A stretch of 64,000 nucleotides of DNA from Biomphalaria pfeifferi (lineage: Eukaryota), in NCBI GenBank assembly GCA_030265305.1, contig JASAOG010000079.1:365331-429330 (forward strand), given 5' to 3'. Made by a program: the position numbers and the translations under genes. Shown piece by piece: positions 1 to 44,672 of the stretch (its first letter is position 1; every line of letters begins with the position of its first letter). The notes beneath the pieces were generated by a model. It saw nothing but the letters and a program-made list of their open reading frames with translations, did not search any database and had not been told where the DNA came from.

Positions 1-699
1 TTCTATTCTACTAATGGAGGTGGCACTCCCGAGAGGAATGATGAGGAAAGACAAGGGTTCACATCCGCAACCTATGCAATATATTGTTTACTTTGGAAGC
101 ACACAGGAGTACTAGACACTAGGTGATAGCTTTTTTCCCCAAGACGTTTCCACCAGGACTCCACGTTAAGATTACAAAACACATTACCTTGTTTTCTTCT
201 TGGTGTGAAGTGTATGCGCGTGTTGCTTATGTAACCATGAAGAAAGTAGGGCGGATGTTGTGCTTGTGTAAGTTGAAAAGTTTCTGATGAAATCATGAGA
301 TAGTTTTAGCTAGTGAAGACTGGTATGAAAGTGGAAGAATGAGAGTAGCAAGTGACTTGAAACCGACTTGTATTATTTTGTTGTGAGATATATTTTGTTT
401 CAAGTATTATTTCTACTTTCAAGTTGAATCTGTGTACATTTATAAACAAAAAGTTATTTTCTGTTTTGTTGTAAAAGAAGTCTATTCAAGTTTATTGTAA
501 GTCAAACATTAAGAATTAAACATGCCTACATCCATTTAGTTGTAGACTAGCTGTTTGGAGCTACAAACCAACGACCAGGTAATAACACTCCACCTCCTCC
601 TGCTGGTTGGTCTACAGTCTGCATCTTAATGGAATTGAACAAGCTTTCATTCCCTTCCTCTAACTATACAGATGTATAAGATTATAATACTTTATTTGA

Positions 700-960
700 C
701 GTAGCGAGATGGGATTATTTTGTAAGTATTTTTCCCAGCTTAGGCGCCAACTTGCCTTGGCTGACATAGAAGAGAGCAACTGGTTGAATGCGGCCTCAGA
801 ACGAGATAGCTGGAGGTCAATCACAAAGAGAAACACATTTGAGACCAAAAGAAAATCCGCTGCCGAGGACAGACGCATACGGCGAAAAGAAAATCTAAAT
901 CGACCATCTGCGGACAATGGTTACGCTTGCCCTGATAGGGCAAAATATGTAGGTCACATA
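700..960 (+). mobile_element. Family X-related fragment
   Basis: Encodes QLALADIEESNWLNAASERDSWRSITKRNTFETKRKSAAEDRRIRRKENL, homologous to the 3375-3815 tail. Confidence 0.55.
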
Positions 961-1009
961 TTCTTTGTTTACTTTTTGACATTGCACTTGCTGAAATACT
1001 TGCTGAAAG

Positions 1010-1400
1010 TTGTCATAACAAACGAATATTCACATTTGACTAGGGTAACACCATTAGTAAAATCACTAAATTTAGAAAGCCTTCAGGACAGAAGACTCAA
1101 AAGTAAAGTAGCAATTATACATAAAACACTGAACCATAATCTTCAAATACAAAAACAAAATTTAATAAAATACTCTGAAAGACACAAAAATAAAGGCACA
1201 TTCCTCGTCCCATATGCTAGGACAAATTTGTACAAATACTCCTTCTTCCCTAGTGCTATTAGAGCATGGAATGGGTTGCCTGAGCTAGCCAGAAAAACCA
1301 GTGACTTGGCAGAATTTAAGTCATTGGTTAATATGCATGACTAAATGCATGACGCGTAGGACGTAATCATCTTCTTTTTTGAAGTAACGTCTGTATTATA
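1010..1400 (+). mobile_element. LINE family Y 3' fragment
   Basis: Encodes TNEYSHLTRVTPLVKSLNLESLQDRRLKSKVAIIH...SLVNMHD and the conserved 3' UTR gttaatatgcatgactaaatgcatgacgcgtaggacgtaatcatc. The 5' part of ORF 709-1344 is a separate TE fragment (family X). Confidence 0.75.
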
Positions 1401-1799
1401 TAAGAGTTTCACCATTTAAATTGTCTGTGAAATTTCTGCTATGGATTTCTCATTCCTCGCTGAATGAAGCGAATAGGGAGATCACAGCTAGAACTGCATA
1501 GCCACGTGAAATATTGCACTTCTACTTAATGTTTGGACTCATAAAGACGAAATATTATTATTATGTCACATGTACACTGCAACTTTACATACATTCAAAA
1601 TAAATATTTATTTGAATGAGATTTGACTATCAACGAGTGATTAACTCATCTCTTATTCTACTTTGCTACATGTATTTTGATTGCATATTCATTTATTAAT
1701 ATTAACTACAGAGATATAAGAGCTACCACCACCAATCTTATAAATTACAAGGTTTCTTCAAAAACAGAAGCTAAATGCGCACTACCGTGTTCATCAGGT

Positions 1800-2480
1800 C
1801 GTGCATGTTAATTAGAGACTTAAACTTTGATAAGTCGTCGGTTTTCCTGGCTGATAAAGGCAACTCGTTCCATGCTCTCAAGGCAGTAGGGAAGAATTTG
1901 TCCTAGAATATGGAATAATAAATGTGCCATTGCCTTTGTGCCTTTCTGATTATGTTGATAGTTTTTTTTTAAATTCTTAATTTATGCTTCAGTGTTTTGT
2001 GTATTATAATTACTTTATTCTTCTGTTCATATTATAAGTATCTCTAAATTTAGTGCTTAAACTAATGCAATACTCTTTGTCTCAGGTACAGCTGAGGCTA
2101 CGTAGCCACGGAAATACTGCATTCCTCATTAATCTTCGGACTCGAAGACAAGCCTTAGTTTTATTATTTTTCTTGTCAAATGTGAGTATTTATTTGTTAT
2201 ACATTTCATTGCTGTAATTTGCGACTGTACTAGTTTCTTGATTACATTTATCCCAAACAAAGGACGCATATTCTTCTTTTTACCAAGGTTAAATAGCATC
2301 TTGGTTGTATGTTTTTATTTTATTTGTAAACATTTCTTTCCATAAACTCTAATGTTTTGATAGATTTTTAAAACAATATCATCAATATGGGAGTTCCATA
2401 ACTTTTCATTTTTTTTTAGGTATTTAGATTTTTTTATGTAACTGGTTTACCATGAATACCATGAGTAGGCCTAATTTATA
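1800..2480 (-). mobile_element. LINE family Y divergent copy (minus) carrying a small nested family-X fragment at ~2093-2158
   Basis: Reverse-complement similarity to the RT C-terminal/3' region of family Y. The ~65-bp segment cagctgaggctacgtagccacggaaatactgcattcctcattaatcttcggactcgaagacaagccttag matches the 3' end of family X (reverse complement of 27030-27090). Confidence 0.5.
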
Positions 2481-2699
2481 TATTTTTTAGTTGCCTTTTT
2501 TGTGTTACTCGTCATTTTTTTCCGGGTGAAAAAAATATGCTACAGTTTGATTTTGATTTCAGTTTCATCTAATTCTCTTTTTAAAATGTCAGTATCTTGT
2601 GATCTTGGGTTTTTTGGTTCCGCAAGGTTATTAACGCCGGAATTGGTAATGGTTTTAAGCACACCAATGGTATGGGTCTCAAATAATCTCTGACAACCA

Positions 2700-3070
2700 G
2701 TCCATCTCCTGGCCTTCACGTACGGTTTAGATATTGAGCCCAGCGGGCCTGTTACTACTTACAGAAGAAAGGGCGAAGGCGAGCAAGTTGCGCCTAAGCC
2801 AGTAAGCCTTGGCAATGAGGGGCTCGTTAGCTTTTGTTGGCTACTCACCTAAGAGGAGGTAAACTCTGAATACAAACCATCGCTGCCTTTCGGATGTACC
2901 CAAACATTGGGAAAGGCTACCTGAGACAATCCTGAGAATAAATCAGGAATTGGTGAGTGGCTACCCTTATGTAGCTTGCGGCACGCAGTGCTATAACCCG
3001 GCAAAGCTACATCCTGGCAGAACATTCAACGTTACTGATCCCCAACTGTTTCGGATATTTGCATTTTTAT
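2700..3070. repeat. Unclassified interspersed repeat (family Z)
   Basis: Shares cgctgc..tacccaaacat(t)gggaaaggctac..gag.caatcctgag..tgatcccaa.ctgt with 20395-20560. Confidence 0.45.
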
Positions 3071-3276
3071 CCCAAGTCTACGAACTACAAACTATACAGT
3101 GCGGATAGAGAATCTTTGGACTCTGGACCAGACTGCACGATATTTTCCTTAGTCCCATTCCCTTTTTACCATTGACATATAATACTGTTAGTAAGGCGAA
3201 ATCCTGGCACAAGACGTCGCAGAAATACCTATAATACATATTGGAACCACACCCTTTCAGTGGTGCAGGAATTTAC

Positions 3277-3830
3277 CTACTTGGGTTCAACAATTGTCAG
3301 TAACCTAGACTTAGACATCGAGCTGACTTTATGGCAGTGAAAGCTGGTCAACATACATGTACCAATAGCACAGATTGAATAGTTTCCACTTGCGCTGCCT
3401 GAGACGCATAATGGGCATCTCTTGGAGGGACCATGTCTCCAATCAGGAAGTTTTGACATTGGCCAATATGAACAGCATGTATGCTCTCCTGACACAAAGA
3501 AGATTACGCTGGCTTGGACATGTTACCCGCATGCCAAATGGTAGAATCCCGAAAGGTATCTTATATGCTGAGCTTGTGGAAGGAGTCAGACCCAAGGGCC
3601 ACCCAAGACTAACATATAGAGATGTCTGCAAGCGAGACATGAGAGCCACAGGCATCAGCGAAAGTATGTGGGAAAACATAGCCAAAGACAGGAGTGCATG
3701 GAGACAGACTGTGCGTGCTGGGACAACCCTTGCTGAGAACAAAAGAATTGAAGCGGCCTTAAGCAAGAGGGAAAAAAAGAAAGCTGCCCTGCCCGCTAGC
3801 CCTGATTTGATTTGATTTTGGGCACATCGG
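3277..3830 (+). mobile_element. Non-LTR retrotransposon family X, ORF2 C-terminal fragment
   Basis: ORF 3375-3815 encodes ..RRLRWLGHVTRMPNGRIPKGILYAELVEGVRPKGHPRLTYRDVCKRDMRATGISESMWENIAKDRSAWRQTV, a conserved LINE ORF2 C-terminal tail. Confidence 0.7.
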
Positions 3831-4019
3831 CACAATTTAGGCCATGTAGTGCCTGCAGTCCCTCAAGGGCCACTCTCCCTCCACACAACAAGGGCCAAAT
3901 TCCATACAGTAAAATCATTAAAATCAAGGTCTATTCACAGTTAAAATAGTAGAGGTAGTAAAAATTTAATAATTTGGTAAAAATCTAATGTAAATAGTAC
4001 ATGTTTACAAATTCATAAA

Positions 4020-4685
4020 TCAGATCTTCGTAGACAACCCCACTTCCCGGATAAAGCCCAGTACCTTCCCAGGGTCGACATTATTGAATAGTGTTTTTAA
4101 ATTAGTGGCTCTAAAATATTTCTCCCTGACATCCTGGTATCTGGGGCAGTCGATGAGGATATGTTCCACGGTGAGGCGAGAGTCACAATACTCACAAAGT
4201 GGGGGCTCTTCTTTCTTCAGCACAAAAGAGTGTGTGATGTAGGTGTGGCGGCCAATCCTAAGTCTGGACATGGTCGAGCTACCACGCCATGTCAGACCCT
4301 TAGATGTGGACCGCCACCTGACATCCGCCACAATCTGCCTGAGTTTATTGTGAGTCTCAGCCTTCCATCGGTCCTGCCACTCTTGATAGGTGGCAGAGGC
4401 AATACTTTGTCTCAGGTCCGAGCAGGGAATTTGGGTTCCTGACACCGCATGATTTAGGGCTCTATTTGCTTCTCTGTCTGCGGCCGCTAGCCTTGAATCA
4501 GAGGCATACATATGTACGAATTGTGGCAAAGTCTGCCGTTCTAGAATTGGCTTGATTAGCCACACCAGATTCTGCCCCGTCTCAAGATTTAGCCAAAACC
4601 AGTGACTCATTTGGGCGCATCCATTGCCTTTCGAGACAAAAGGAGCCATATATAATACAGATGTAAGTTCTGTCGAGCTATTCAT
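4020..4685 (-). mobile_element. Non-LTR retrotransposon ORF2 C-terminal fragment (third family; Cys-His C-terminal domain)
   Basis: 221-aa ORF with ..RLRIGRHTYITHSFVLKKEEPPLCEYCDSRLTVEHILIDCPRY, typical of LINE ORF2 C-termini. Confidence 0.65.
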
Positions 4686-4884
4686 CCGAGAGCAGCTTTT
4701 GATACAGTTGACTAGAGATCAGATGTGATAAACAGATGATTTAATTAGGTATCTTAGGATATTTCTCAGCTGGTTTGAGATCCGTTTGAGAGTTCGAAAT
4801 AATAGTGAACTTTAATAGATTTCATTCGCACGCATAAAGAAATGCAAAACAAGAAATAGAAAAAAAAAAAAACACTTTATCAAA

Positions 4885-4995
4885 CCAAGAATATGAGTTG
4901 AAATAAACCTAGAGACAAGAATACAAGTTGAAATAAACCTAGAAACAAGAATATGAGTTAAAATAAATCTAGAAACAAAAATATGAGTTGATAAT
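4885..4995. repeat. 30-bp tandem repeat (gttgaaataaacctagaaacaagaatatga)n, ~4 copies
   Basis: Directly visible. Confidence 0.85.
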
Positions 4996-5397
4996 TGAAG
5001 CAACAAAAGTAAGCCACATCCAACATTTACCTATATACCTCTTAGCGTCAAAAAGTTTTAAAAGATAATAATGAATATCTTCACTATATATGCACAGAGT
5101 CAAGCGTTAAATGACTTGCTTGCGAAGCATAGGTAACAGAATTGTAATAAATGAACTAGACAAAAGTAAATACGGAGCTCTAGAAAATCTGATCTTTTTT
5201 AAAAAGTTGTTGGGTTTTAATGGCTGCAAATACTTATGCTACAGTAACCAAGACCTGACCAAAGATGACACATTGGCGAGAAACTGAAGCGAAAATTAGT
5301 TTAACACTTGTGCAATTAGCATCTATATTTAGATTTCAAGAAAACGAAAGTCTAAGAAACGCCAAATTTCGATTGAAATATTTTAACTTACCAAATC

Positions 5398-5509
5398 TGG
5401 CAGGTTTTTGAATCAAAGTATGTGGCATTATTGGGTCTGTGTTGTCCTGTTTCGTTCACACATTTACAGGCGTCCCCCTGAACACACTGACCTTGATGAC
5501 AAAGACATG
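5398..5509 (-). CDS. mucin/VWF-like gene exon (Cys-rich module after the repeat domain)
   Basis: Strong acceptor ttttatttttacag and donor gtaagt, in phase with the PTS exon. Encodes (A)CLCHQGQCVQGDACKCVNETGQHRPNNATYFDSKTCQI. Confidence 0.65.
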
Positions 5510-5618
5510 CTGTAAAAATAAAACAATTGAACAAAGGTGGACAATTGAGCAAAGGTGGACAAGTGAATAAATGCAATTAGGGCATAACTGACTTTAAAGT
5601 AAAGATAAAAACACTGAC

Positions 5619-8270
5619 CTAGTTGACGTGAAATTGTCAAAGAGAGTGCGGCAGCGATAGGCGAGGTCGTAGTATATTGTGTCAGCTTTGTTATTGTTGA
5701 AGTTTCGTTGATATACTTTGCATTTGTAGTGCTTCCTGGCATTTCAAGCGAAGTATATTGTGCCTTTGTAGTCATTTCTTGGGAAAGAGTTGTTTCTTTA
5801 CTCAATTCTGTGATAGAATATTCTAGTGTTGTCTGAATAGTCTTTTCAGTGGTAGTTAATAGTTTCTGTGGTGTTGTTTCAATAGTCTTTTCAGTGGTAG
5901 TTAATACTCGCTGTGGTGTTGTTTTAGTAGTCTTTTCAGTGGTTGTAATTTCTTCCTCTGTTGTTTCTATGGTCTTAGCAGCGGTTGTAAATTCTTTTTC
6001 TGTTGTTTCTTTGGTCTTAGCAGTGGTTGCAAATTCTTCCTTTGTTGTTTCTTTCATCATAGCAGTGGTTGTAAATTCTTCCTTTGGTGTTTCTTTCATC
6101 ATAGCAGTGGTTGTAAGTTCTTCCTTTGGTGTTTCTTTCATCATAGCAGTGGTTGTAAGTTCTTCCTCTGTTGTTTCTATGGTCTTAGCAGTGGCTGTAA
6201 GTACTTCCTCTGTTGTTGTTTCTATGGTCTTAGCAGTGGTTGTAAGTTCTTCCTCTGTTGTTGTTTCTATGGTCTTAGCAGTGGTTGAGAGTTCTTCCTC
6301 TATTGTTGTTTCTTTGGTCGTAGCAGCGGTTGTAAGTTCTTCCTCTGTTGTTGTTTCTATAGTCTTATCAGTGGTTGTAAGTTCTTCCTTTGGTGTTTCT
6401 TTCATTATAGCAGTAGTTGTAAATTCTTCTTTTGTTGTTTCTATGGTCTTAGCAGTGGTTGTAAGTTCTTCCTCTGTTGTTGTTTCTATGGTCTTAGCAG
6501 TGGTTGTAAGTTCTTCCTCTATTGTTGTTTCTATGGCCTTAGCAGTGGTTGTAAGTTCTTCCTCTGTTGTTGTTTCTTTGGTCTTAGCAGCGGTTGTAAG
6601 TTCTTCCTCTGTTGTTGTTTCTAAGGTCTTAACAGTGGTTGTAAGTTCTTCCTCTGTTGTTGTTTCTATGGTCTTAGCAGTGGTTGTAAGTTCTTCCTCT
6701 GTTGTTGTTTCTATGGTCTTAACAGCGGTTGTAAGTTCTTCCTCTGTTGTTGTTTCTATGGTCTTAGCAGTGGTTGTAAGTTCTTCCTCTGTTGTTGTTT
6801 CTATGGTCTTAACAGTGGTTGTAAGTTCTTCCTCTGTTGTTGTTTCTATGGTCTTAGCAGTGGTTGTAAGTTCTTCCTCTGTTGTTGTTTCTTTGGTCTT
6901 AGCAGCGGTTGTAAGTTCTTCCTCTGTTGTTGTTTCTATGGTCTTAGCAGCGGTTGTAAGTTCTTCCTCTGTTGTTGTTTCTATGGTCTTAGCAGCGGTT
7001 GTAAGTTCTTCCTCTGTTGTTGTTTCTATGGTCTTAGCAGTGGTTGTAAGTTCTTCCTCTGTTGTTGTTTCTATGGTCTTAGCAGTGGTTGTAAGTTCTT
7101 CCTCTGTTGTTGTTTCTATGGTCTTAACAGCGGTTGTAAGTTCTTCCTCTGTTGTTGTTTCTATGGTCTTAGCAGTGGTTGTAAGTTCTTCCTCTGTTGT
7201 TGTTTCTATGGTCTTAACAGTGGTTGTAAGTTCTTCCTCTGTTGTTGTTTCTATGGTCTTAGCAGTGGTTGTAAGTTCTTCCTCTGTTGTTGTTTCTTTG
7301 GTCTTAGCAGCGGTTGTAAGTTCTTCCTCTGTTGTTGTTTCTATGGTCTTAGCAGCGGTTGTAAGTTCTTCCTCTGTTGTTGTTTCTATGGTCTTAGCAG
7401 CGGTTGTAAGTTCTTCCTCTGTTGTTGTTTCTATGGTCTTAGCAGTGGTTGTAAGTTCTTCCTCTGTTGTTGTTTCTTTGGTCGCAGAAGCGGTTGTAAG
7501 TTCTTCCTCTGTTGTTGTTTCTATGGTCTTAGCAGTGATTGTAATTTCTTCCTTTGTTGTTTCTTTCATCTTAGCAGTGGTTGTAAATTCTTCCTCTGTT
7601 GTTTCTATGGTCTTAGCAGTGGTTGTAAATTCTTCCTTTGTTGTTTCTATGGTCTTAGCAGTGGTTGTAAGTTCTTCCTCTGTTGTTTCTTTCATCAAAG
7701 CAGTGGTTGTAAATTCTTCCTTTCTTGTTTCTGTTGTTTCTATGGTCTTAGCAGTGGTTGTAAGTTCTTCCTTTGGTGTTTCTTTTGTCTTAGCAGTGGT
7801 TGTAAGTTCTTCCTCTGTTGTTTCTTTGGTCTTAGTAAAGGTTGTAATTTCTTCCTCTGTTGCTTTTTTTGTCTTATCAGTGGTTGTACTTACAGTAATT
7901 TCTGTAGTTATTTCTGGTACAATTGTTTCTGTAACTTTTTCAGAAATTGTAGAAATGTTTGGCACAAATGTTTCTGTAACTTTTTTAGAAACTGTTGTGA
8001 TTTCTGGCGCAAATGTTTCTGTAACGTCTTCAGAAACTGTTGTGTTTTCTGGCCCAAATGTTTCTGTAACTTTATCGGAAACTGTTTTGATTTCTGGTGG
8101 AAATGTTTCTGTAGCTTCTTCAGAAACTGTTGTGATTTCTGGCGCAAATGTTTCTGTTACTTCTTCAAAAACTGTTGTGATTTCTGGCGCAAATGTTTCT
8201 GTAACTGCTTCAGAAACTGTTGTGATTTCTGGTGCAAATGTTTCTGTAACTTTTTCATGAACTGTAGTAT
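5619..8270 (-). CDS. mucin/VWF-like gene exon: Thr/Glu-rich tandem-repeat (PTS-like) domain
   Basis: Acceptor ttattttatcaactgcag (2-nt start, in phase with the previous exon) and donor gtcagt. 884 codons open in one frame. Made of ~14-aa VTETFAPEITTVSE repeats then ~45 copies of a 15-aa TTTEEELTTTAKTIE repeat (45-bp DNA period). Confidence 0.75.
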
Positions 8271-9087
8271 CTGCAGTTGATAAAATAATTTTGGACAAGC
8301 TTATGATGTGTTATTATTGCTTACCATCATGATAGTCATAGAAATACTAGGCCACATGTTGTGAATCATCCCAGTTTGTTTCCAAACGTTTTGATCACAT
8401 TGTATTCAACTAAGAAATTAACTTGGGGAATATATAAAATGGTTTCTATTTTTTAAACTGTGTTTCAAGTGTTCATTTAAATGACAGCAAATTTTTTTTG
8501 GTTAAATAATTCCTCTTATTAGCTGGCAAACTCTTCATGGGTGGGCGGACACGACTCTAACGATTTTCCCAGAAGTTTGACAGTTTATCTATATCTTAAA
8601 GGAAAAAAAAGAGGGTGGGGAATAGTTATTACAAGCAAACTAACCATTCTTACAAAAAGTCTTTAGCTTTATAAAAGGAGTAATAGCCTTTTTAAAGAAA
8701 TAATTTGTGACAAATTTTACTTGTTTTTATAGCACAACCACAATGAATCTGAATAGAAGAAATGTATTTAAAACTAAAGTGTTTTCTGAGTTAATTTTAC
8801 AATTCCTTTTATTTACATTACACAATTTTTTACTGTTTTCACCCGAGTCTTTCAAAAAAGAGACATGCTTTTTGTTCACAATCGGTCACATAAAATCTCA
8901 GTTGTTAATAAAATAGTCAGGTAAATTAATTATTTAATTATGATCATTAAAATTTATATGTCATAAATGAAAGTGTACATACTATATTTTGAGTATAAAA
9001 GGAATACTTTAATGTAACGTTCATGTAGTTGTGTAGGTGGGTCTCTGTATGCATATATACTTAATTCCTAAATATTTCTATAATTAC

Positions 9088-9260
9088 CCAGCTCTAAACA
9101 TTCATCTGAAGACTCATCTGATCCATCTTCACAATCTTGGACTTCATCACAAACGCTGCTGTTTGAAATGCATTTATGACTCTCAAGACATTCAAACTGA
9201 TCGATGTGACACTTGGTGCAGTTTTCACCAGTACATAGAAATACTCCTCCTTGGCAGACA
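9088..9260 (-). CDS. mucin/VWF-like gene exon (E module end + LDLa-like Cys/acidic module)
   Basis: Acceptor ttcttctag and donor gtaatt. Encodes (C)VCQGGVFLCTGENCTKCHIDQFECLESHKCISNSSVCDEVQDCEDGSDESSDECLEL, an LDL-receptor class A pattern (CxxxxFxCxxxxCIxxxxxCDxxxDCxDGSDE). Confidence 0.75.
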
Positions 9261-9479
9261 CTAGAAGAAATTGTGGGAAATAGTGGAACATCTTAAAATA
9301 ACAAGAGCTTTATATTGATATAAAATTGTGCAGTATTCCCACTTCACAGGAGCTATAAATAGACATGAACCTAGGAACACATGAGATTTTAACTTATAAA
9401 ACACTGAACTCCTCCCCCAGACTATATCTAGTATTAAACATATGAAACAAATTTCAATATTCCTTTTGACCGTAGCTGT

Positions 9480-10273: not shown

Positions 10274-10365
10274 CAATTCATGCAGTCAACAATGTTCACA
10301 GAGTCAGCATCATACCATCGCCCGTTGTGATAGCATGGGCATTCATTTGGAGAGATACAGCTTGA
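10274..10365 (-). CDS. mucin/VWF-like gene exon (TIL end + E module)
   Basis: Acceptor ctaaagag and donor gtaaat. Encodes SSCISPNECPCYHNGRWYDADSVNIVDCMN. Phase-2 end plus T of the next exon gives Cys. Confidence 0.8.
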
Positions 10366-10979
10366 CTCTTTAGAAAAAAAAAAAAGAGAAAGAGATAAAG
10401 AGACGGAGTGAACTAGATAATTCAAAACATTAAATTCATCCTTTGACTAGCAATACTTTAAGTTTCATATTCGCATTTTGTCATAATATAAATCTAATGT
10501 TTCGTTTTCTTAGGTCTTTATTAAGGCTCTTACAAGATTTGTTTATTGTAAAACAAAAACAATCAAAAAAAAAAAAACAACAACAACAAAGAATGCTAAA
10601 TGAAGTTTTCTAAAAGACCTAGAAATATTAGTCATTACTAATAATTGTAAAAGTATTTAATTGACATATTGTCGAGCTTTTCCTTTTGCAAACATTTAAT
10701 ACATGATATAATGAACAGTGAACAAAATTGAATTCCCTTTCGCGAATTGTTACTTTAATTTAATTAAAATAATTTCAAACAGTGCAAAGAAGATACATAT
10801 ATATATATATAAATATATATATATTGCTACAGTTGTAAAGAGCTACATAGTTAGACACTAACATGGGTACAAAGAATACACAGGAAAGAATCCTATTTGT
10901 TTTTTAACTGTGTGATATGTTTTTTAACATATACACAGTCTGATAAAATATTCACAAAGACACAAAGATAAATGCACAT

Positions 10980-11394: not shown

Positions 11395-11560
11395 AAGTCT
11401 TGACATATAAGGTCTAGCAATGTAATTCTTACCATGTAAGGTCTGGTAATGGAGCTACTTGCTATGTTAGGTTTGGCAATGGACCTAATTACTATGTATG
11501 GTCTGGCTATGGAGCTACTTACAATGTAAGGTCTGGCAATGGAGCTACTTACCATGCAAA
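11395..11560. repeat. ~31-bp tandem repeat (aaggtctggcaatggagctacttaccatgt)n, ~5 copies, in the intron next to exon 11563-11702
   Basis: Directly visible. Confidence 0.85.
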
Positions 11561-11562
11561 AC

Positions 11563-11702
11563 CTGACCAGTAGGACAGAAGCATCCTTCTACTTGGACAT
11601 GAGTTAGACAATTCGCGGACGTATTCTTTGAAATATCATAGCAGGTCATGTGACAAGGTGCATCTTTGGCCTGGTACACCATTCCTCCTTCACACTGTAC
11701 AG
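11563..11702 (-). CDS. mucin/VWF-like gene exon (TIL domain)
   Basis: Acceptor cattttag and donor gttttg. Encodes (P)VQCEGGMVYQAKDAPCHMTCYDISKNTSANCLTHVQVEGCFCPTGQ. Confidence 0.85.
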
Positions 11703-11879
11703 CTAAAATGAATAGATGATGATGAAATGATTAAGTAGTTTTTTCCCTCAGAAAAAAAATGCAAGTCAAAATGCACGATTTATTACCAATCTGTCTCCTG
11801 CTCGCCAGTCAGGCTCTTAGAGTTTATAGTATAACTATCATTCGGTAGATATTATAATATAGTTGAAATTTTTAAGGAA

Positions 11880-13189: not shown

Positions 13190-13990
13190 TTATATAATAC
13201 AGATGTTACTTCAAAAAAGAAGATGCTTACGTCCTACGCATCATGCATTTAGTCATGCATATTAACCAATGACTTAAATTCTGCCAAGTCACTGGTTTTC
13301 CTGGCTAGCTCAGGCAACCCATACCATGCTCTAATAGCACTAGGGAAGAAGGAGTATTTGTACAAATTGTCCTAGCATATGGGACGAGGAATATGCCTTT
13401 ATTTTTGTGTCTTTCTGAGTATTTGATTAAATTTTGTTTTTGTATTTGAAGTTATGGTTCAGTGTTTTATGTATAATTGCTACTTTACTTTTGAGTCTTC
13501 TGCCCTGAAGGCTTTCTAAAATTTAGTGATTTTACTAAGGGTGTTACTCTAGTCAAATGTGAATATTCATTTGTTATGAATCTCACTGCTCTATTTTGTG
13601 TATTTTCCAGTTTCTTAATGTTTTCTTGAGTTGAGGGGTCCCAAACGGAGGATGCATATTCTATTATTGGCCTAACCAAGGTTAAATGACATTGTAGTTT
13701 TATGTTCTTATTTGATTTATAGAAATTTCTTTTAATAAATCCTAATGCTTTGTTTCATTTTTTTTTTATAGTTTCATCAATATGTGGATTCCATGACAGT
13801 TTTTCATTTATTATAACACCTGGGTATTGTGCGTTTTATAGTCTGTGTTACTGGTTTGCCATGGATAAGATAAGTGGAATTAATTTGTTTTGAATGTAAT
13901 TACCCGCTAGAAAACGATTTATTTGTAGAACAAGTGGTTGTGTGTTTTAAAAAAATGATCGGACAAAACTGTAGGCTTGTAATCCAATTG
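13190..13990 (-). mobile_element. LINE family Y 5'-truncated copy (minus)
   Basis: Reverse complement of the conserved 3' UTR at 13200-13265. Minus ORF 13485-13679 encodes MVRPIIEYASSVWDPSTQENIKKLENTQNRAVRFITNEYSHLTRVTP. Confidence 0.75.
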
Positions 13991-15850: not shown

Positions 15851-17589
15851 CGGTAACAATACACACACACACACACACATCTAAAAAGCTAAAAATTATT
15901 TGCAAAATATAATTTCATTTTTATTGATGTTTACTTTTCGGTTATTAAGCTCAATAATTGAAACACACATAGTTTAATAAGTTATAAATAGTTTATAGAT
16001 AGTGTAATTCAATCAAAGTCGTTAGAATAGATTATTGTCCAAATAAAATGGTCCGCTTTGATAGAATAGATTGCATTTGAAAGCTAATGCTAAGGGCAGT
16101 GCATAGAATTATTTGCAAATGGTTCAGTGAGCAGAAATAAATCGGAGAAGAATTTTATTGTAACACAACTATCCTGGAGAGATAAGATTAGCCACAATTC
16201 TTATGGGCATTAAATACATCAGAGATTCTTCTGTTCACAGTGCCTCTAATAGGTGTTGCCTTAAGGGTTGGATCGCTGGCGCCCCCAGGAACATCAATGA
16301 GATACTCTGCACACACACACGCGAAACCGGCTTGTGCATAAAATTTAGTTTGTTGTATCCGTATCACTCTAATGCTCCAAATTGTGTACATAAGAAACAA
16401 CTCGTCACACACAGCAAATTACAACCTCCAACCTCAGCCCTCACTAACTCCAAATGTGTTACTTCAATCAAAATTCATTTCCTCCCCTTACTATTCCAGT
16501 GAATATGTTGTTCAGGATCTCATTCCCCTATGGATACCCATGGTCAACCTCTCAATAACTCGGGTAAAGTAAAGTCATACCTTTATAATAACAGTGTTTG
16601 TGACACACGAATTCTTGTTGTTTTTTTCTCTCTGTTATTTTAATATTCATTTCGTTTCATCGTCTAAGAGCTGAGCCGAAGGCTCTTCGAGCTTTTTAGT
16701 TTGAAGAAAACACTGTTTGAGCGTCAAACAGTAAAAAAAAAACAGTCTGAACCGCCGTTCTCTCTGGAAGAGACCCAAGTCAATGCCTTTATAAAGCATT
16801 GCTATTTCCGACAAAACTGGCCTCCAGACGCATGGGCTAGACATGGCCAAAGGACAGAGTTTACGGGAGCCTCCGCCATTTTCCTATGTTATACTAAGCT
16901 CACAGTGGAGGGAAATCGCCATTAATGGAACGGTGCCTTGAGGAACGGCGCATGGATTATCGACAGGGTTGTGAGAGATCTCTTTCAACTCCGTGCGTGC
17001 AATGGGCCCGCTCTCGCGTACCCTTGGACACTCCCGCGGGAGTTTTGTTTTGCCATTCATTTAGCCTAGTTACCCCCTCAAGTAACCGTTTCCACACGGG
17101 CGCCACTTTGAGGCAGAATAGCATGCCTGTGAATATTAATTCCAAAATACACAATCGTTCCTGGTATTACCTGACTAACATATTTCTGACATTTTTTCAT
17201 TGATATCTGGCGCGGATTTTGGATTATACACTTTATACAACCAAACAGGTCATCAAGGGTGTATTCAATAGGGCTTCATCTGTGATTCCTTTGTGATATC
17301 CCCCGAGCAGATATTTGTAAATGTTAACGCAGGAGTTTCCCAGGTCAGTTTCCAATTGTCCGGAGGATTTCAGCTCTCGTCTCCTCAGCGTAGTGCCTCC
17401 AGTAGAAACGTCTAGAAGTACAACTAGATAGGCTAAGAACGAGAGCTAACAAGACCTCTTGTGGGCTACATTGGGTTAGCTTTTTTATTTATCTCATCGT
17501 GGGGATGGAACAAATAGGCCGGTAACCTAGTCCAAAAAGTTATTTATGTATCGACATATTACGTCATGCTGAAATATTGAGTGAAATAC

Positions 17590-17795
17590 CTCACAAGACG
17601 GCGTGGTGATGTCATAGTCCGAGTCCGAGCAGATGGCGCCTTCTTCCTTCCAAGACATTCCAAATTCAATAGCATCACTGCCAAGACTGTGATCAGATTT
17701 CAGAAAGTCGTTTTTTGAGTCAAAGTCATAAGTCCCACACAGACCCTCCAGCTTATTGAGCCATTTATCTGAGACTTGAATTTTGGTTAACAGGG
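17590..17795 (-). CDS. mucin/VWF-like gene exon (VWD GLCG..SW region)
   Basis: Acceptor tttgtttctctag and donor gtattt. Encodes LLTKIQVSDKWLNKLEGLCGTYDFDSKNDFLKSDHSLGSDAIEFGMSWKEEGAICSDSDYDITTPSCE. Confidence 0.85.
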
Positions 17796-17892
17796 CTAGA
17801 GAAACAAATGAAAACTTGATGCTACGTAAAAGGTGTCAAAGTTTGAAGTTAGTGTGCAAGGCAATCTGAAGATATGCTTAAGACTTAGTATT

Positions 17893-17896
17893 CCAG

Positions 17897-17936
<40 letters not shown>
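17893..17936. repeat. (AT)22 microsatellite
   Basis: Directly visible. Confidence 0.95.
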
Positions 17937-17940
<4 letters not shown>

Positions 17941-19472
17941 GTATATACAAATTAACAGCATCTCTAGTTTGATTTGGTTATCTAGATTTATGTTGTTTTT
18001 TTAATCTCCAACCCAGCTTCTCATTATGTAAAATTGTTAAGTTTATCCCAGACAAGATGAAATATTTTCCCCAAATCAACAATACCACAGAGGCTGAAAA
18101 CAAGAACACAAAAATAGTCTGAATCTAAAATCTGTTGTTTGTTGTGTATGAAGCTGCCGAGCTATAGGGCACCGATATGGAGTGTGCGTATGGAAGATGT
18201 GTTATTGGTGTGTTATTTGTACAATTATCAATGCAATGTTAATTAAACCACCATGATTCATTGATTGGTATACATTGAAATTTCTTGTTAATTTGCAATT
18301 AGGTTATTATTAAATATTGTTCGTGTTGAAACAATTGTTGTGTTTTCACTAACTGTTCAGTTGAATGACATTTATTCGATGCTAAGTTATGTAGTTTTAT
18401 ACGCTATTACTGTATGGGTTTTCGCTTTATACTGTTGAGGTGGGGAACCCGGGAAATCAATGAAATTCTGTCCACCCCTAGATAAACAAACTGTAAACCT
18501 AACTGACAACGGCGAGGCAGGATATAAAACTATGTAAGATTATTACAATTTTTTTTTTATATATTTCAATGGTTTGTTTTATATATCCATATGTAGCTAT
18601 TTCTATATCGTTTATAGCTCTGTAGAATTGGTTTTGAAAAAAAAATTGAAATAAGACTCAACAAAAACATTTTTTTAAAAGTGACCTAGAATAAAGATAG
18701 GTCATAAGACCAGTGACCTGTACTGTACTGGCAAGTTAGTCCAGTGGTACTTGGTGGTCCCAATTATATTATCTAGGCTAATAACTGTAGCCTCTAGATG
18801 TACAAAACTACTGAGACAGACAAGTAATAAGTTTGAGATTTCAGTTGCAACACAAAAAAAAGGAGTTTATTTACAAACAAAAGAAACAGATCATGAAAAA
18901 TATAAATGGCAATAAAGGCTCACAAAAGAATATGACATAATGAAACAAAGCAAAGTAGCAAGACAGTTTCCAGTCAATATAATTAAAGAACCATCATTAT
19001 AGAGGCACAATAATGTCTTATGCCAAAAAACCAAAAAGATGGTTTACAATAATATAATATACATGCATAAACAATGAAATGACGTCATTCATGAGACACA
19101 CTACTGTTTCGTATCTAAACAAAAGATGTCTTTAAAAAAAACATACAGGAGAGGATAAGAGACTAAGTGGCAATTGTAAACAGTTAACAGGGACTTAAAT
19201 CAAGTAATAAAGGGGACTAACTCTAATAAACAAAATAAAGGTAGCCACCATTATTGTCCCTCTTGTCACAGTCAAGTTAAAGAGAAATCCAGTGTGCTCA
19301 ATACTGATAGTTTTTATATTCAAATGCGATTAACGTTATATGATTTTGTCAGTTATGTGCGAGTGTGTGTTTGGCTTATTTCTGCATGTAATACGTGTAT
19401 GTTGTGTGTTATCTGGTGTGTTGTGTGTGTGTGTATTAGTCAAATATTGAGAGTGATCAACCCAATGCTTAC

Positions 19473-19704
19473 CTCCAGACCAGTACAACGCTATCTCCTG
19501 GAAACTGACCACTGTGTGAAGAGTAGACGAGAATATGTGGACATCTCCGAGTCTCAGAGAGTCATTTAAGGCCAGAACAGTGTTGCCTGTAATGATCCCC
19601 TCGATCCCTTTAATCAGCTGGACATGAGTGTCTCCAACATGGATATCAATCTTATGGGAACAAGCGATCCCTGAGGATCCACACGCCAGGTTTTTTATGC
19701 TGAC
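19473..19704 (-). CDS. mucin/VWF-like gene exon (VWD core)
   Basis: Acceptor tttgtag and donor gtaag. Encodes VSIKNLACGSSGIACSHKIDIHVGDTHVQLIKGIEGIITGNTVLALNDSLRLGDVHIFSSTLHTVVSFQEIALYWSG. Confidence 0.85.
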
Positions 19705-19779
19705 CTACAAACATGTACATTTAGACAACAGTAATCATTTATTAACCAGAGATTCTAACATTACAAATATATGCATATG

Positions 19780-19862
19780 CCATGCATGACTAAATGCATG
19801 TATTACGCTTTCGACGTAATCATATTCTTTTTTGAAGTAACGTCTGTATTATATAAGATATA
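19780..19862 (+). mobile_element. LINE family Y 3'-terminal fragment
   Basis: catgcatgactaaatgcatgtattacgctttcgacgtaatcat..ttgaagtaacgtctgtattatataaga. Confidence 0.6.
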
Positions 19863-19985
19863 TCCATATCCAACATTTGCATCACAATACATATGCGGGG
19901 AAATATGCAGGACTCAATTGGGTTTGCGTAGTCATGTGAAACGCATCCTTATTGTCTTTCATGGTTTAAATGAAATAAAGCAAAC

Positions 19986-20101
19986 CTTCACTTCCGGTGT
20001 GCTCGATTTGATGAGTGTGTAAGAACAACGCCCCGGAAAACGGAACATACTTCCGTCAAACGTCACCACTGTCATTGATGTACCAGACAAATAACAGGAG
20101 G
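19986..20101 (-). CDS. mucin/VWF-like gene exon (VWD N-terminus)
   Basis: Acceptor ctcttttcctcag and donor gtttgc. Encodes SCYLSGTSMTVVTFDGSMFRFPGRCSYTLIKSSTPEVK. Confidence 0.8.
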
Positions 20102-20394
20102 CTGAGGAAAAGAGGGATATCGTATGAATTCAACCCCATACATTGGACAAACTGGTTGGATTAATAATTAATAAATAATACGTACTGGCCTTTGCTCTAG
20201 AAAAAGTTAATTTAGGATTTATTATGTGTGCCTACATTTTCCAATGCTATCTTTATATCCTATAATTCTCATTTAAAATTTTTACACATCATAAAGCTTA
20301 ATTTAATAATTAAATCTGGTGCATAAACCAGAAAAAAATGTGCATGAGGGGATGGGTAGCATAGGTAGGTTAGAAGAAGATAAATATCTGAATC

Positions 20395-21175: not shown

Positions 21176-22445
21176 GATAAGAAATTTCCTTACATTGTCA
21201 TGTTAACCTAAACCTAACTAAAAAGTTCCTTACATCGTCATGTTGACCTAAACTTAACTAAAAGTTCCTTACATCGTCATGTTGACCTAAACATAACTAA
21301 AAAGTTCCTTACATCGTCATGTTGACCTAAACTTAATTAAAAAGTTCCTTACATCGTCATTTTGACCTAAACTTAACTAAAATTTCCTTACATCGTCATG
21401 TTGACCTAAACCTAACTAAAAAGTTCCTTACATCGTCATGTTGACTTAAACTTAACTAAAAGTTCCTTACATCGTCATGTTGACCTAAACCTAACTAAAA
21501 AGTTCATTACATCGTCATGTTGACCTAAACTTAACTAAAAAGTTCCTAACATCGTCATGTTGACCTAAACTTAACTAAAAAGTTCCTTACATCGTCATGT
21601 TGACCTAAACTTAACTAAAAAGTTCCTTACATCGTCATGTTGACCTAAGCTTAACTAAAAGTTCCTTACATACATCGTCATGTTGACCTAAACCTAACTA
21701 AAAAGTTCCTTACATCGTCATGTTGACCTAAACTTAACTAAAAAGTACCTTATATCGTCATGTTGACCTAACCTTAACTAAAAGTTCCTTACATCGTCAT
21801 GTTGACCTAAACCTTACTAAAAAGTTCCTTACATCGTCATGTTGACCTAAACTTAAATAAAAGTTCCTTACATCGTCATGTTGACCTAAACTTAACTAAA
21901 AGTTCCTTACATCGTCATGTTGACCTAAACCTAACTAAAAAGTTCATTACATCGTCATGTTGACCTAAACTTAACTAAAAAGTTCCTAACATCGTCATGT
22001 TGACCTAAACTTAACTAAAAAGTTCCTTACATCGTCATGTTGACCTAAACTTAACTAAAAAGTTCCTTACATACATCGTCATGTTGACCTAAACCTAACT
22101 AAAAAGTTCCTTACATCGTCATGTTGACCTAAACTTAACTAAAAAGTACCTTATATCGTCATGTTGACCTAACCTTAACTAAAAGTTCCTTACATCGTCA
22201 TGTTGACCTAAACCTTACTAAAAAGTTCCTTACATCGTCATGTTGACCTAAACTTAAATAAAAGTTTCTTACATCGTCATGTTGACCTAAACTTTAAAAA
22301 AAAATTCCTTACATCGTCATGTTGACCTAAACTTAAATAAAAGTTTCTTACATCGTCATGTTGACCTAAACCTTAAAAAAAATTCCTTACATCGTCATGT
22401 TGACCTAAACTTAACTAAGAAGATCCTTACATCGTCATGTTGACC
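21176..22445. repeat. 40-bp satellite (aagttccttacatcgtcatgttgacctaaacttaactaaa)n, ~31 copies
   Basis: Directly visible tandem array with point variants. Confidence 0.95.
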
Positions 22446-22574
22446 TACCATGAAAGTCAATTCTTTTTATTTTCCGCCACACGCTATTGTCACACTTCCT
22501 GAAAGACAAACAGAATGTACACATGGATGTCATATTCAAAGATCTCTAAACCTAGTCAATTGAACTGTAACTTA

Positions 22575-24574: not shown

Positions 24575-25752
24575 AAGTAAAGATAATAGTGAACAAATAG
24601 ATGCTATCTTACTAGATTTTTCTAAGGCTTTTGACAAAGTTCACCACCATAGTTGGCTTAAAAAATTAAAATATTTCGGCATTAATGGTCCACTGCATCA
24701 GTGGATTAAAGATTTTCTGATAGAGAGAGAACAAACTGTAATAATAAATGGCTCTAAATCAACACCAATAACAGTAAACTCAGGTGTACCTCAAGGAACA
24801 GTCTTGGGTCCACTACTATTTTTAATTTACATAAATGATTTACCAAATTGCATTAGTTCAGGAACAAAAGTCAGATTATTTGCAGACGATTGCATAATAT
24901 ATAGAACAATAAAAACAAAACAAGACACAGATACTTTACAAAGAGAATTAGATGAATTACAGAAATGGGAATCAAATTGGAGCATGTCTTTCCACCCAGA
25001 AAAATGTCAGTTGTTAAGAGTAACAAAAAAACTAAAACAAATTAATTCCACTTATCTTATTCATGGCAAACCAGTAACACAGACTAAAAACGCAAAATAC
25101 CTAGGTGTTATAATAAATGAAAAACTGTCATGGAATCCACATATTGATGAAACTATAAAAAAATCAAACAAAGCATTAGGATTTATTAAAAGAAATTTCT
25201 ATAAATCAAATAAGAACATAAAACTAAAATGTTATTTAACCTTGGCTAGGCCAATAATAGAATATGCATCCACCGTGTGGGACCCCTCAACTCAAGAAAA
25301 CATTAAGAAACTGGAACAAACACAAAATAGAGTAGTGAGATTCATAACAAACGAATATTCACATTTGACTAGGGTAACACCTATAGTAAAATCACTAAAT
25401 TTAGAAAGCCTTCAGGACAGAAGACTCAAAAGTAAAGTAGCAATTATACATAAAACACTGAACCATAATCTTCAAATACAAAAACAAAATTTAATAAAAT
25501 ACTCTGAAAGACACAAAAATAAAGGCACATTCCTCGTCCCATATGCTAGGACAAATTTGTACAAATACTCCTTCTTCCCTAGTGCTATTAGAGCATGGAA
25601 TGGGTTGCCTGAGCTAGCCAGAAAAACCAGTGACTTGGCAGAATTTAAGTCATTGGTTAATATGCATGACTAAATGCATGACGCGTAGGACGTAATCATC
25701 TTTTTCTTTTGAAGTAATGTCTGTATTATATAAGATAAGATAAGATAAATTG
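24575..25752 (+). mobile_element. LINE family Y, 5'-truncated copy with open RT C-terminal ORF
   Basis: ORF 24804-25673 (LDFSKAFDKV.., FADDCIIY, ..YSFFPSAIRAWNGLPE). Conserved 3' UTR and (TAAGA)n-like tail. Confidence 0.85.
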
Positions 25753-25844
25753 GCTTCAATTCCATTATTCACAAAGAAATTTTTAAGTCTCCACTTTGGA
25801 ATGCATTTCATTCTACCAAGAACCCAAAGTTATCAAAAACTTAC

Positions 25845-26094
25845 CAACGTATGCAAAAATCTTTTTGGAAAGAACCTGGCTTGACATAGGCCTTAGACTG
25901 GACTTCAAAACATGGGCAATCTTTTCTTTTTACACAATGTCCTTCATGGGTCAGCAGATGACCATGTGGGCAAGAACATCCTGGTACAGTTTTATCCGTG
26001 AACATCCTGACAGACAGCTGGGGGTCGAGACAATGAGATAGCCAGACTGGGGTGTGGTCATTGTAATCTAGGTCACCTTGACACGTTTGCATTT
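25845..26094 (-). CDS. mucin/VWF-like gene exon (TIL end + E module)
   Basis: Acceptor tttctttgaaacag and donor gtaagt. Encodes ...GCSCPHGHLLTHEGHCVKRKDCPCFEVQSKAYVKPGSFQKDFCIR. Phase-2 end joins the next exon to give Cys. Upstream exons between 26.1 and 30.4 kb were not resolved. Confidence 0.8.
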
Positions 26095-26117
26095 CTGTTT
26101 CAAAGAAAAAGAAATCA

Positions 26118-26207
26118 AATCAATCAATTCAAATCTATCTATCTATCTATTTTTCTATCCATCTTATCTATCTATCTATCAAATCGATCTGTCTGTCTCT
26201 CTCTCTT

Positions 26208-30316: not shown

Positions 30317-30434
30317 AGATAAGATAAGAACTGACGATACCAACGTTGATTCCACCAGAATGTGGTAAATAATTACGGAGAGAAAGAGCTAAACGACGAT
30401 GTAATCTTTAGTGTCTTTGAGACTTTATGCCTAC

Positions 30435-32232: not shown

Positions 32233-32337
32233 AACATCTAACACATCAAACACCTTACCTAGTTGTACAGTTTGTAGACCACTATAACATCAAACACCAT
32301 TAGCATAAAACTGCAAATATAAATGAGTACATCTTAC

Positions 32338-44663: not shown

Positions 44664-44672
44664 AACTTCTTT

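Follow-up and report, generated by a model that had tools for sequence, protein, structure and literature searches.

A probable large threonine- and glutamate-rich tandem-repeat exon in a putative SCO-spondin-like gene of the snail Biomphalaria pfeifferi

A tandem-repeat interval at positions 5619–8270 of a 64,000-nucleotide stretch of Biomphalaria pfeifferi DNA (contig JASAOG010000079.1; hereafter the window) is probably one large coding exon, internal to a gene on the minus strand. Its product would be a mucin-type spacer, lineage-specific, O-glycosylated and polyanionic, and evolving through unequal crossing-over. The exon comprised 2,652 nt, had phase 1 at both ends and encoded no Cys. The initial annotation had described a single open frame of 884 codons over this interval, and this count was reproduced on the minus strand when the two split codons were included. 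With the frame fixed by the flanking exons, none of the 883 full codons from 8270 to 5619 was a stop; the remaining two sense frames held 54 stops apiece and the antisense frames 3, 9 and 116. Because both an ATG near the 5′ end and a signal peptide were missing, the open reading frame (ORF) did not represent a stand-alone gene.

The exon was bounded by a canonical acceptor (...TTATCAACTGCAG/AT, AG at 8272–8271) and a canonical donor (CTAG/GTCAGT, GT at 5618–5617), which coincided exactly with the positions needed for frame joining. The introns on both sides were in phase 1. Upstream, an 817-nt minus-strand intron (8271–9087; donor G/GTAATT, acceptor CTGCAG) separated the repeats from an LDL-receptor class A (LDLa) exon on the same strand (9088–9260; phase 2 in, phase 1 out; CHIDQFECLESHKCISNSSVCDEVQDCEDGSDESSDEC). 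This exon matched PF00057 (E 3e-8, 34.2 bits, cut-off 24.1) as well as LDLR structures in the PDB. Downstream, a 109-nt minus-strand intron (5510–5618) holding an 18-bp tandem repeat led to a Cys-rich minus-strand exon (5392–5509; phase 1 in, phase 2 out; ACLCHQGQCVQGDACKCVNETGQHRPNNATYFDSKTCQI) with six Cys in 39 aa at EGF-like spacing, for which no Pfam family was found. Joining four consecutive exons (E-module, LDLa, repeat, six-Cys) gave 1,012 codons without a stop, so that the proposed in-phase splicing to LDLa-like and Cys-rich exons was borne out at the sequence level. Since the repeat exon is phase-symmetric (1-1), its skipping also preserves the frame (G + CA = Ala).

The open frame did not end with the repeats. 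A Thr/Ser-rich tail without repeats (TTLSQEMTTKAQYTS...ISRQL; 5619–5793, minus strand) continued in frame as far as the GT donor. Over the 86 weakly repetitive or non-repetitive codons at the 3′ end of the exon (5620–5877) the frame was open, with 38% Ser + Thr, and its openness exceeded chance: 0.5% of shuffles of these codons remained open in the same frame. On the plus strand, a V/S-rich ORF of 803 aa (5849–8260) was present, as had been noted. It was rejected as a true gene and is a by-product of the repeat outside any gene, in agreement with its earlier reading as an artefact: it stopped inside the exon bounds, had no plus-strand gene context and was contradicted by the flanking domain exons, all of which lay on the minus strand.

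In the sense direction the exon consisted of eight units of a first array followed by 46 units of a second. Tandem Repeats Finder reported one array at 7902–8265 (period 45, 8.1 copies, 85% matches) and another at 5872–7888 (period 45, 45.7 copies, 89% matches). Array 1 (7902–8265, minus strand) contained eight 45-bp units of VTETFAPEITTVSE plus a variable 15th residue, which may be E. These units, found both by Tandem Repeats Finder and in the unit listing, replace the approximately nine 42-bp copies that the initial annotation had placed upstream; the 42-bp units that may have been sensed at that time are variants of array 2. In our own parse, array 2 (5794–7821, minus strand) contained 46 TTTEEELTTTAKTIE-type units with degenerate edges. 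The expected array of about 45 tandem units was thus recovered in frame, but only 30 of the 46 had the proposed length of 45 bp (15 aa); 14 units were 42 bp (14 aa), one was 51 bp (17 aa) and one was 39 bp (13 aa). Descent of both arrays from one ancestral repeat was at most marginally indicated: at the best rotation 23 of 45 positions matched, a value equalled by 4.6% of shuffles.

Array 2 had a homogeneous core of 24 contiguous 45-bp units (6439–7518, minus strand) with a mean pairwise identity of 96.4%. Eleven array 2 units equalled the consensus at the nucleotide level, and edge units dropped to 62–83% identity. The A/T/V and K/I substitutions described earlier were seen again, although at three positions of the core unit (T/A at 10, A/V at 11, I/K at 14) rather than two. 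An exact higher-order tandem duplication of 405 bp (nine units) was located at 6633–7477 on the minus strand, where 440 nt were identical at a shift of 405; the 845-nt stretch amounted to 2.09 perfect copies of the block. The duplication reflects an unequal exchange of very recent date or else an assembly artefact. Together, the homogeneous core, the degenerate edges and the exact 405-bp duplication support concerted evolution, as the initial annotation had suggested. Array turnover by replication slippage and unequal crossing-over would have homogenised the core, left the edges degenerate and given rise to the recent nine-unit block duplication.

It is somewhat unlikely that the exon is real but owes its length and copy number to mis-assembly, by expansion or collapse. 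The perfect copies of the 405-bp block and the 11 units identical to the consensus fit such an error, and tandem arrays of this kind are described as error-prone in assemblies (Torresen et al., as cited in PMC10475054). Nevertheless, variant units occurred in an ordered pattern and the edges were degenerate, as in a correctly spanned array, and the frame was intact throughout. A mis-assembly would, moreover, alter only the length and not the nature of the feature.

Among the unique variants, 9 of 48 were synonymous in array 2 (25% expected), 7 of 28 in array 1 (7 synonymous, 21 non-synonymous) and none of 9 in the array 2 core, where all nine variable sites fell at codon positions 1 or 2. There was no signal of purifying selection at the variant sites of array 1, array 2 or the core, and the 48 array 2 variants, none of which was a stop, were not significantly depleted in stops (P about 0.16); neither these counts nor stop avoidance have enough power to tell coding from non-coding sequence here. 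The frame was maintained, as had been claimed, with no stops, but this is weak evidence for selection because the 3-bp length differences between units fall in an (ACA)n run, which slips by triplets whether coding or not.

We also considered that the interval might be a non-coding intronic minisatellite whose unit is stop-free by chance in one frame per strand, with the LDLa exon spliced straight to the exon starting at 5509. The window was rich in non-coding minisatellites (periods 19, 25, 37 and 40 bp), long ORFs occurred on both strands of the arrays, and the lack of a synonymous excess and of significant stop avoidance, the frame-preserving skip and the lack of a known homologous protein are all compatible with this explanation. 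Nonetheless, we regard it as unlikely. The frame continued past the repeats through the 86 weakly repetitive codons up to a consensus donor, the tail was still Thr/Ser-rich, and two distinct arrays, both with a 45-bp period, shared one frame compatible with both neighbouring exons. Good AG and GT sites lay exactly at frame-compatible positions, and the location after the third D assembly corresponds to the PTS slot of gel-forming mucins (PMC4948705).

The host gene is best explained as encoding a multidomain glycoprotein that is secreted and belongs to the VWD-C8-TIL superfamily, with predicted serial D assemblies at the N-terminus and one LDLa after them. Members of this superfamily include gel-forming mucins, SCO-spondin, VWF and FCGBP. 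Three N-terminal VWD-C8-TIL units were found, as in gel-forming mucins, which additionally have a C-terminal VWC and a cystine-knot for dimerisation (Lang et al. 2016, PMC4948705). In the first unit, C8 (E 6.1e-10) and TIL (E 1.3e-9) were detected with Pfam, and the VWD exons were visible by eye and by weak tblastn matches only. In the second, the VWD end (E 0.0011) and TIL (E 1.3e-4) were both slightly below the Pfam cut-offs. The third assembly, on the minus strand, consisted of a VWD in three exons (17530–20129; PF00094, E 8.4e-8 and 1.7e-7) within the open segments 19962–20129, 19339–19704 and 17530–17835, a C8 exon in the open segment 12376–12561 (PF08742, E 2.9e-8), a TIL exon in the open segment 11548–11730 (PF01826, E 3.7e-5) and an exon with the TIL end and the E-module (10274–10367; SSCISPNECPCYHNGRWYDADSVNIVDCMN), placed by domain reading and splice joining. 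Residues 2–366 of the concatenated third assembly aligned end to end with VWF D2, MUC2 D3, MUC5AC D3 and FCGBP structures (E 1e-105 to 1e-68).

One LDLa exon followed the D assemblies and preceded the repeat exon; an LDL_recept_a domain in this place is the marker of the SCO-spondin family (Lang et al., PMC4948705). The closest named homologue found with BLAST was "SCO-spondin-like" (40% identical across 34% of the query). In two unnamed relatives (P0002, P0003), VWD-C8-TIL was likewise followed by LDLa, with three LDLa in the corresponding position. A CCPGYTGVNC motif at 50885–51037, which had no Pfam match at E ≤ 0.1, hints at an N-terminal EMI-like domain. The gene left the window at its low-coordinate end, and 3′ of the repeat exon only the exon 5509–5392 lay within it. 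The rest of 1–5391 was transposon debris, and no thrombospondin repeats were found in the minus-strand open segments of this region. A Gypsy pol ORF in the window was 98.7% identical to B. pfeifferi KAK0040803.1, which assigns the window to the planorbid genus Biomphalaria.

The repeat exon encoded 37.6% Thr, 22.5% Glu, 8.8% Lys, 1.9% Pro and approximately 2% Ser, with no Cys. Its product, with approximately 330 Thr and 200 Glu, had a pI of 4.3 and a net charge of −122. According to a rule of thumb, PTS domains contain at least 40% Ser + Thr and "often" more than 5% Pro (Lang et al. 2016, PMC4948705). Ser + Thr was 39.8% overall, at least 40% in 68% of the 100-aa windows and 46% at maximum, a borderline content that essentially reached the threshold, nearly all via Thr. 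Pro stayed below 5% overall and reached at least 5% in 9% of the 100-aa windows, all of them within array 1. The initial annotation had called the domain acidic, Thr-rich, Pro-poor and atypical of PTS domains, and these values agree with that description. Because Lang et al. write "often", the Pro content concerns a typical rather than an absolute trait. The scarcity of Pro, atypical for mucin O-glycosylation domains, counts against a mucin spacer. As a mucin feature the exon would be of an ordinary kind, with a composition that is unusual in being acidic and proline-poor.

Like the PTS domains of MUC2, MUC5AC and MUC5B, the repeats were encoded in one very large exon, Cys-free, with approximately 40% hydroxy-amino acids and a homogenised core consistent with unequal crossing-over. 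They also lay immediately downstream of a D3-type assembly, which aligned end to end with the MUC2 and MUC5AC D3 structures; in gel-forming mucins the PTS domain sits directly after the D3 assembly (PMC4948705). In contrast to those PTS domains, in which Pro is typically above 5%, the repeats had the low Pro and Ser and the high Glu, Lys and peptide charge given above, and D3 and repeats were separated by LDLa rather than by CysD. With invertebrate SCO-spondin-like gel-forming mucins (PMC4948705) and with "Spondin1" of Cornu aspersum, a spondin-like protein with Ser/Thr-rich repeats that was proposed as a snail mucin (PMC10475054), the locus shared VWD-C8-TIL assemblies followed by Ser/Thr-rich repeats; Cornu aspersum is likewise a gastropod. 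Unlike in these proteins, the repeat was Pro-poor and about 23% acidic, had no detectable sequence relative and was accompanied by a single LDLa. Thrombospondin repeats and a C-terminal cystine knot, as in SCO-spondin-like mucins, were not visible in the part of the gene within the window, past whose edge the gene runs.

The order of D assemblies and LDL_recept_a was also that of vertebrate SCO-spondin, the Reissner-fibre glycoprotein, which the CCPGYTG motif may further recall through the possible EMI-like domain. The vertebrate protein carries about 10 LDLa together with over 20 TSR repeats, and is not known to contain a mucin-type tandem-repeat exon. In contrast, no TSR was seen in the window, and the EMI-like domain was without Pfam confirmation. 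A zonadhesin-type VWD protein (P0130; HMMER E 1e-21, via common composition and periodicity) similarly carried a short Thr/Glu repeat between Cys-rich modules, in this case AEPVHTT repeats flanked by MAM and VWD domains. Its unit differed, being Pro-containing and 7–8 residues long in a MAM context, and the similarity is compositional, not homologous.

Relatives of the repeat were not found in the collections searched. In a collection of 5.8 billion sequences, the exon and the flanking exons matched no annotated protein at high identity, so the gene lacks an annotation or the snail proteomes of that collection do not include it. A word-indexed protein search with the LDLa, repeat and Cys-rich exons gave only three weak low-complexity matches. 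With the exon as query, HMMER returned 131 matches when all of 1.84 billion representatives were searched exhaustively, but the top matches inspected were rejected as homologues, being unrelated Thr/Ser/Pro/Ala-rich tandem repeats with 20–36% identity; neither the TTTEEELTTTAKTIE nor the VTETFAPEITTVSE unit occurred among them. Pfam identified no family on the exon, the exact 45-mer had no match in a metagenome scan, the repeat peptide strings appeared in no paper of the searchable full text, and exact-protein look-ups in public assemblies (the 944-aa ORF, the neighbouring transposon ORF and P0004) returned nothing on record.

We infer that the exon is transcribed and included in the mature transcript, where it would contribute a Cys-free low-complexity spacer of approximately 880 residues built from two 15-residue tandem repeats. 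Its Thr residues would be densely O-glycosylated in the secretory pathway, and the glycans together with the Glu residues could produce a polyanionic "bottle-brush" that is stiff, extended and strongly hydrated and that may bind cations. Like a mucin PTS domain, such a spacer may keep the disulfide-rich polymerising N-terminus apart from the downstream Cys-rich modules. Selection would then target composition, length and frame, not exact sequence.

AlphaFold2, given one sequence of 15 core units, predicted an all-beta structure with exact 15-residue periodicity (best pLDDT 90.5, pTM 0.70), and its weak Foldseek neighbours were all beta-helix proteins; no PDB match had E < 2. Confident solenoids are a known AlphaFold2 artefact for near-perfect repeats (PMC11795689), and the beta-solenoid was discounted because the same DNA, when translated in antisense, yielded one too, with higher scores (pLDDT 92.9, pTM 0.87); the fold was thus neither sequence-specific nor reliable. 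It is therefore very improbable that the translated repeat, instead of being a glycosylated brush without order, is a beta-solenoid with Thr ladders reminiscent of insect antifreeze or ice-binding and mineral-binding proteins, given also that the five models of the sense repeat ranged in pLDDT from 90.5 to 45.6 and that three Glu stacked per turn are electrostatically unfavourable. Equally improbable would be a folded, cation-dependent solenoid rod in a snail VWD-family protein, with ladders of Thr and rows of stacked Glu, that binds mineral- or ice-like surfaces or, in a milder version, a planorbid-specific, Pro-free, Ca2+-binding polyanionic "acidic mucin" domain; such a rod, if real, would represent a structural class new among animal extracellular repeats. 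The paired sense and antisense runs are a clear warning that a predicted solenoid should not be accepted as it stands when the repeats are near-perfect.

If expressed, the preferred mucin-type spacer would extend the SCO-spondin-like branch of the VWD proteins of invertebrates by a lineage-specific, strongly acidic, Pro-poor domain, and would indicate that the slot after D3 can take very different repeat chemistries; current understanding is not overturned by this exon. Biomphalaria is the intermediate host of Schistosoma mansoni, and the glycoproteins of its secreted mucus and its surface bear on how miracidia are attracted and penetrate. Since the gene is apparently missing from the protein collections searched, manual annotation of the locus may be required. 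Candidate peptides for proteomics from this locus are TIETTTEEELTTTAK, which covers the exon, and TIETTTEEELTTAAK.

The tandem-repeat interval rich in Thr and Glu on the minus strand (8270 to 5619; 2,652 nt; hereafter the repeat exon) had no stop in its 883 full codons when read in the frame fixed by the neighbouring exons, so the single open exon described in the initial annotation was recovered. Stops numbered 54 in each of the two remaining sense frames and 3, 9 and 116 in the antisense frames. The ORF listing gave a minus-strand ORF of 944 codons (5464-8298) and a V/S-rich plus-strand ORF of 803 codons (5849-8260), the latter being the artefact it had been taken for. The exon was bounded by a canonical acceptor (TTATCAACTGCAG/AT, AG at 8272-8271) and a canonical donor (CTAG/GTCAGT, GT at 5618-5617), and both introns were in phase 1. 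The upstream exon, encoding an LDLa module (9260-9088), ended in phase 1 with ...GAG CTG G/GTAATT, and the downstream Cys-rich exon (5509-5392) started in the same phase with tttttacag/CA TGT... past a 109-nt intron. When the E-module exon (10367-10274) and the LDLa, repeat and Cys-rich exons were joined, 1,012 codons without stops were obtained, with sensible junction codons such as ...DCMN-C-VCQGG... and ...ECLEL-D-TTVHEK..., and the proposed in-phase splicing to both flanking exons is accordingly well predicted. Neither an ATG close to the start nor a signal peptide was present in the repeat ORF, which would therefore be sensible solely as an internal exon. Of the last 86 codons (5620-5877), 58 were non-repetitive and the others included two degenerate units; this 3' end was open, as were 0.5% of shuffles, and its Ser+Thr content was still 38%. 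Because the repeat exon is phase-symmetric, skipping it would also keep the frame. If the donor at 5618 were unused, the frame would continue for 51 codons with a very hydrophobic tail (GQCFYLYFKVSYALIAFIHLSTFAQLSTFVQLFYFY...) to a stop at 5464-5466 (-), so the protein from a transcript retaining the 109-nt intron would be truncated and hydrophobic at its C-terminus. This intron contained an 18-bp tandem repeat (5523-5571, -).

Tandem Repeats Finder detected two arrays with a period of 45 bp, one at 7902-8265 (array 1; 8.1 copies, 85% matches) and one at 5872-7888 (45.7 copies, 89% matches; array 2, 5794-7821 by unit parsing). The tandem array had thus been correctly recognized, with minor corrections to the counts, but the upstream unit, previously given as 42 bp, was 45 bp long: array 1 comprised eight units of 15 residues, each VTETFAPEITTVSE plus one variable residue. 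Array 2 comprised 46 TTTEEELTTTAKTIE-type units of 15 (n = 30), 14 (n = 14), 17 (n = 1) or 13 (n = 1) residues. Unique variants showed no sign of purifying selection, either in array 2 (9 of 48 synonymous, about 25% expected), in array 1 (7 of 28) or in the homogeneous core of array 2 (0 of 9; 6439-7518). Stops were absent among the array 2 variants, which was not significant (P about 0.16), and the 3-bp length differences were located in an (ACA)n run, which is prone to triplet slippage regardless. These results, like the phase symmetry, are neutral towards an exon or speak against it. An untranslated intronic minisatellite might vary in this way; set beside the open frame, the matching splice phases and the open, weakly repetitive 3' end, we consider that explanation unlikely.

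Within the exon, the core consisted of 24 contiguous units with 96.4% pairwise identity. All nine variable sites in it were at codon position 1 or 2, with changes in residues 10 (T/A), 11 (A/V) and 14 (I/K). The nucleotide-level consensus of array 2 was matched exactly by 11 units, and identity to it fell to 62-83% at the 3' edge. A block of nine units (405 bp) was exactly duplicated (6633-7072 = 7038-7477, a 440-nt run). This combination of a homogeneous core with degenerate edges and a recent higher-order duplication is the textbook pattern left by unequal exchange, in agreement with the concerted evolution suggested initially. The exact duplication could instead be an assembly artefact, and the copy number of the array may be mis-assembled, a concern separate from whether the interval is coding. 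Array 1 and array 2 are at best distantly related, as their best rotation matched 23 of 45 positions, a value equalled by 4.6% of shuffles. Another in-frame 45-bp tandem repeat (42794-43239, -; 9.9 copies of SPRCSNDSIQSSHNT-like units) was present in the gag region of a Gypsy ORF, so coding 45-bp arrays are not peculiar to the mucin-like exon. It also gave rise to long opposite-strand ORFs (42329-43312, +).

The encoded peptide was composed of 37.6% Thr, 22.5% Glu, 8.8% Lys, 7.1% Ala and 1.9% Pro, lacked Cys and Trp, and had a pI of 4.3 and a net charge of -122. According to Lang et al. 2016 (PMC4948705), a Ser+Thr content of 40% or higher is typical of Pro/Thr/Ser-rich (PTS) mucin domains, in which Pro often exceeds 5%. 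Ser+Thr was borderline here (39.8% overall; at least 40% in 68% of 100-residue windows), and Pro reached 5% in only 9% of windows, all inside array 1. The composition is therefore as atypical as had been noted; particular to this exon is a chemistry of almost pure Thr, about 23% acidic and nearly Pro-free. The interpretation as a mucin-like single exon is supported at the sequence level, and the exon probably encodes a polyanionic spacer, with dense O-glycosylation, that forms part of a secreted snail glycoprotein resembling SCO-spondin or gel-forming mucins. Gel-forming mucins carry their PTS domain in the same slot, whereas here a single LDLa module lies between the last D assembly (VWD-C8-TIL unit) and the repeat exon. 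Among VWD proteins, LDL_recept_a marks SCO-spondin (Lang et al. 2016, PMC4948705). This kind of protein is already known, since a spondin-like protein with Ser/Thr-rich repeats has been proposed as a mucin in the garden snail Cornu aspersum (PMC10475054). A word-indexed protein search found no relatives of the repeat exon, and the top hits inspected from an exhaustive HMMER search against 1.84 billion representatives were unrelated tandem repeats of similar composition. The repeat peptide strings were absent from searchable papers and the 45-mer from the metagenome contigs searched.

AlphaFold2 modelled 15 core units (single sequence) as all-beta with strict 15-residue periodicity (best pLDDT 90.5, pTM 0.70; five models, pLDDT 90.5 down to 45.6), and Foldseek found nothing in the PDB at E < 2, the weak neighbours being beta-helix proteins. 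A beta-solenoid fold deserves little weight, because a control peptide from the opposite strand of these 675 nt, which this gene model leaves untranslated, was modelled even more confidently (pLDDT 92.9, pTM 0.87). With both strands solenoid-like at high confidence, 6439-7114 is a clean example of a perfect-repeat artefact.

Between about 5 and 51 kb, domain searches of the open segments on the minus strand identified C8 (35183-35377, E 6e-10), TIL (34590-34859, E 1.3e-9), the C-terminal end of a VWD (30411-30689, E 1e-3), TIL (25844-26119, E 1.3e-4), VWD (19962-20129 and 17530-17835, E about 1e-7), C8 (12376-12561, E 2.9e-8), TIL (11548-11730, E 3.7e-5) and LDL_recept_a (9071-9292, E 3e-8). 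Residues 2-366 of the concatenated third D assembly, the one nearest the repeat exon, aligned to the solved D assemblies of FCGBP (E 1.9e-105) and VWF (E 2.5e-85) and to the D3 assemblies of MUC2 (E 3.7e-76) and MUC5AC (E 5.1e-68). This domain set and these alignments indicate that the gene is intact upstream of the repeat exon. Only three database proteins resembled the flanking exons: a shark "SCO-spondin-like" protein (40% identity) was the best, and the other two had VWD-C8-TIL followed by three LDLa modules. For the VWD, C8, TIL and LDLa exons (about 5.4-51 kb, -), no high-identity protein was found in a collection of 5.8 billion proteins that includes those of B. pfeifferi, and the host gene seems to be unannotated or absent from available Biomphalaria proteomes. 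Its start and signal peptide were not located. Candidate 5' exons, without Pfam confirmation, were a segment with an EMI-like CCPGYTGVNC motif (50885-51037, -) and a further Cys-rich segment (49890-50123, -).

An intron of the VWD gene contained a full-length Ty3/Gypsy-type LTR retrotransposon (38200-45700, -) with one gag-pol ORF of 1,692 aa (39328-44406, -). Its LTR segments (38618-38917 and 44794-45093) were 100% identical over 300 nt, pointing to a very young insertion, and its pol region was 98.7% identical to B. pfeifferi KAK0040803.1, which assigns the sequence to Biomphalaria or a closely allied planorbid. The integrase was N-terminal of the reverse transcriptase, which we take to be the Gmr1-like domain order. 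Two large non-coding satellites were present, one with a 25-bp unit (53588-57665, about 165 copies, 4.1 kb) and one with a 40-bp unit (21182-22447, about 32 copies), the latter in an intron that separates the D'-type from the D3-type exons. At least five 3'-end copies of a non-LTR retrotransposon family sharing the C-terminus ...LKSKVAIIHKTLNHNLQIQKQNLIKYSERHKNKGTFLVPYARTNLYKYSFFPSAIRAWNGLPELARKTSDLAEFKSLVNMHD were scattered across introns, on the plus strand at 709-1344, 24804-25673 and 29797-30147 and on the minus strand at 13252-13754 and 32073-32237.
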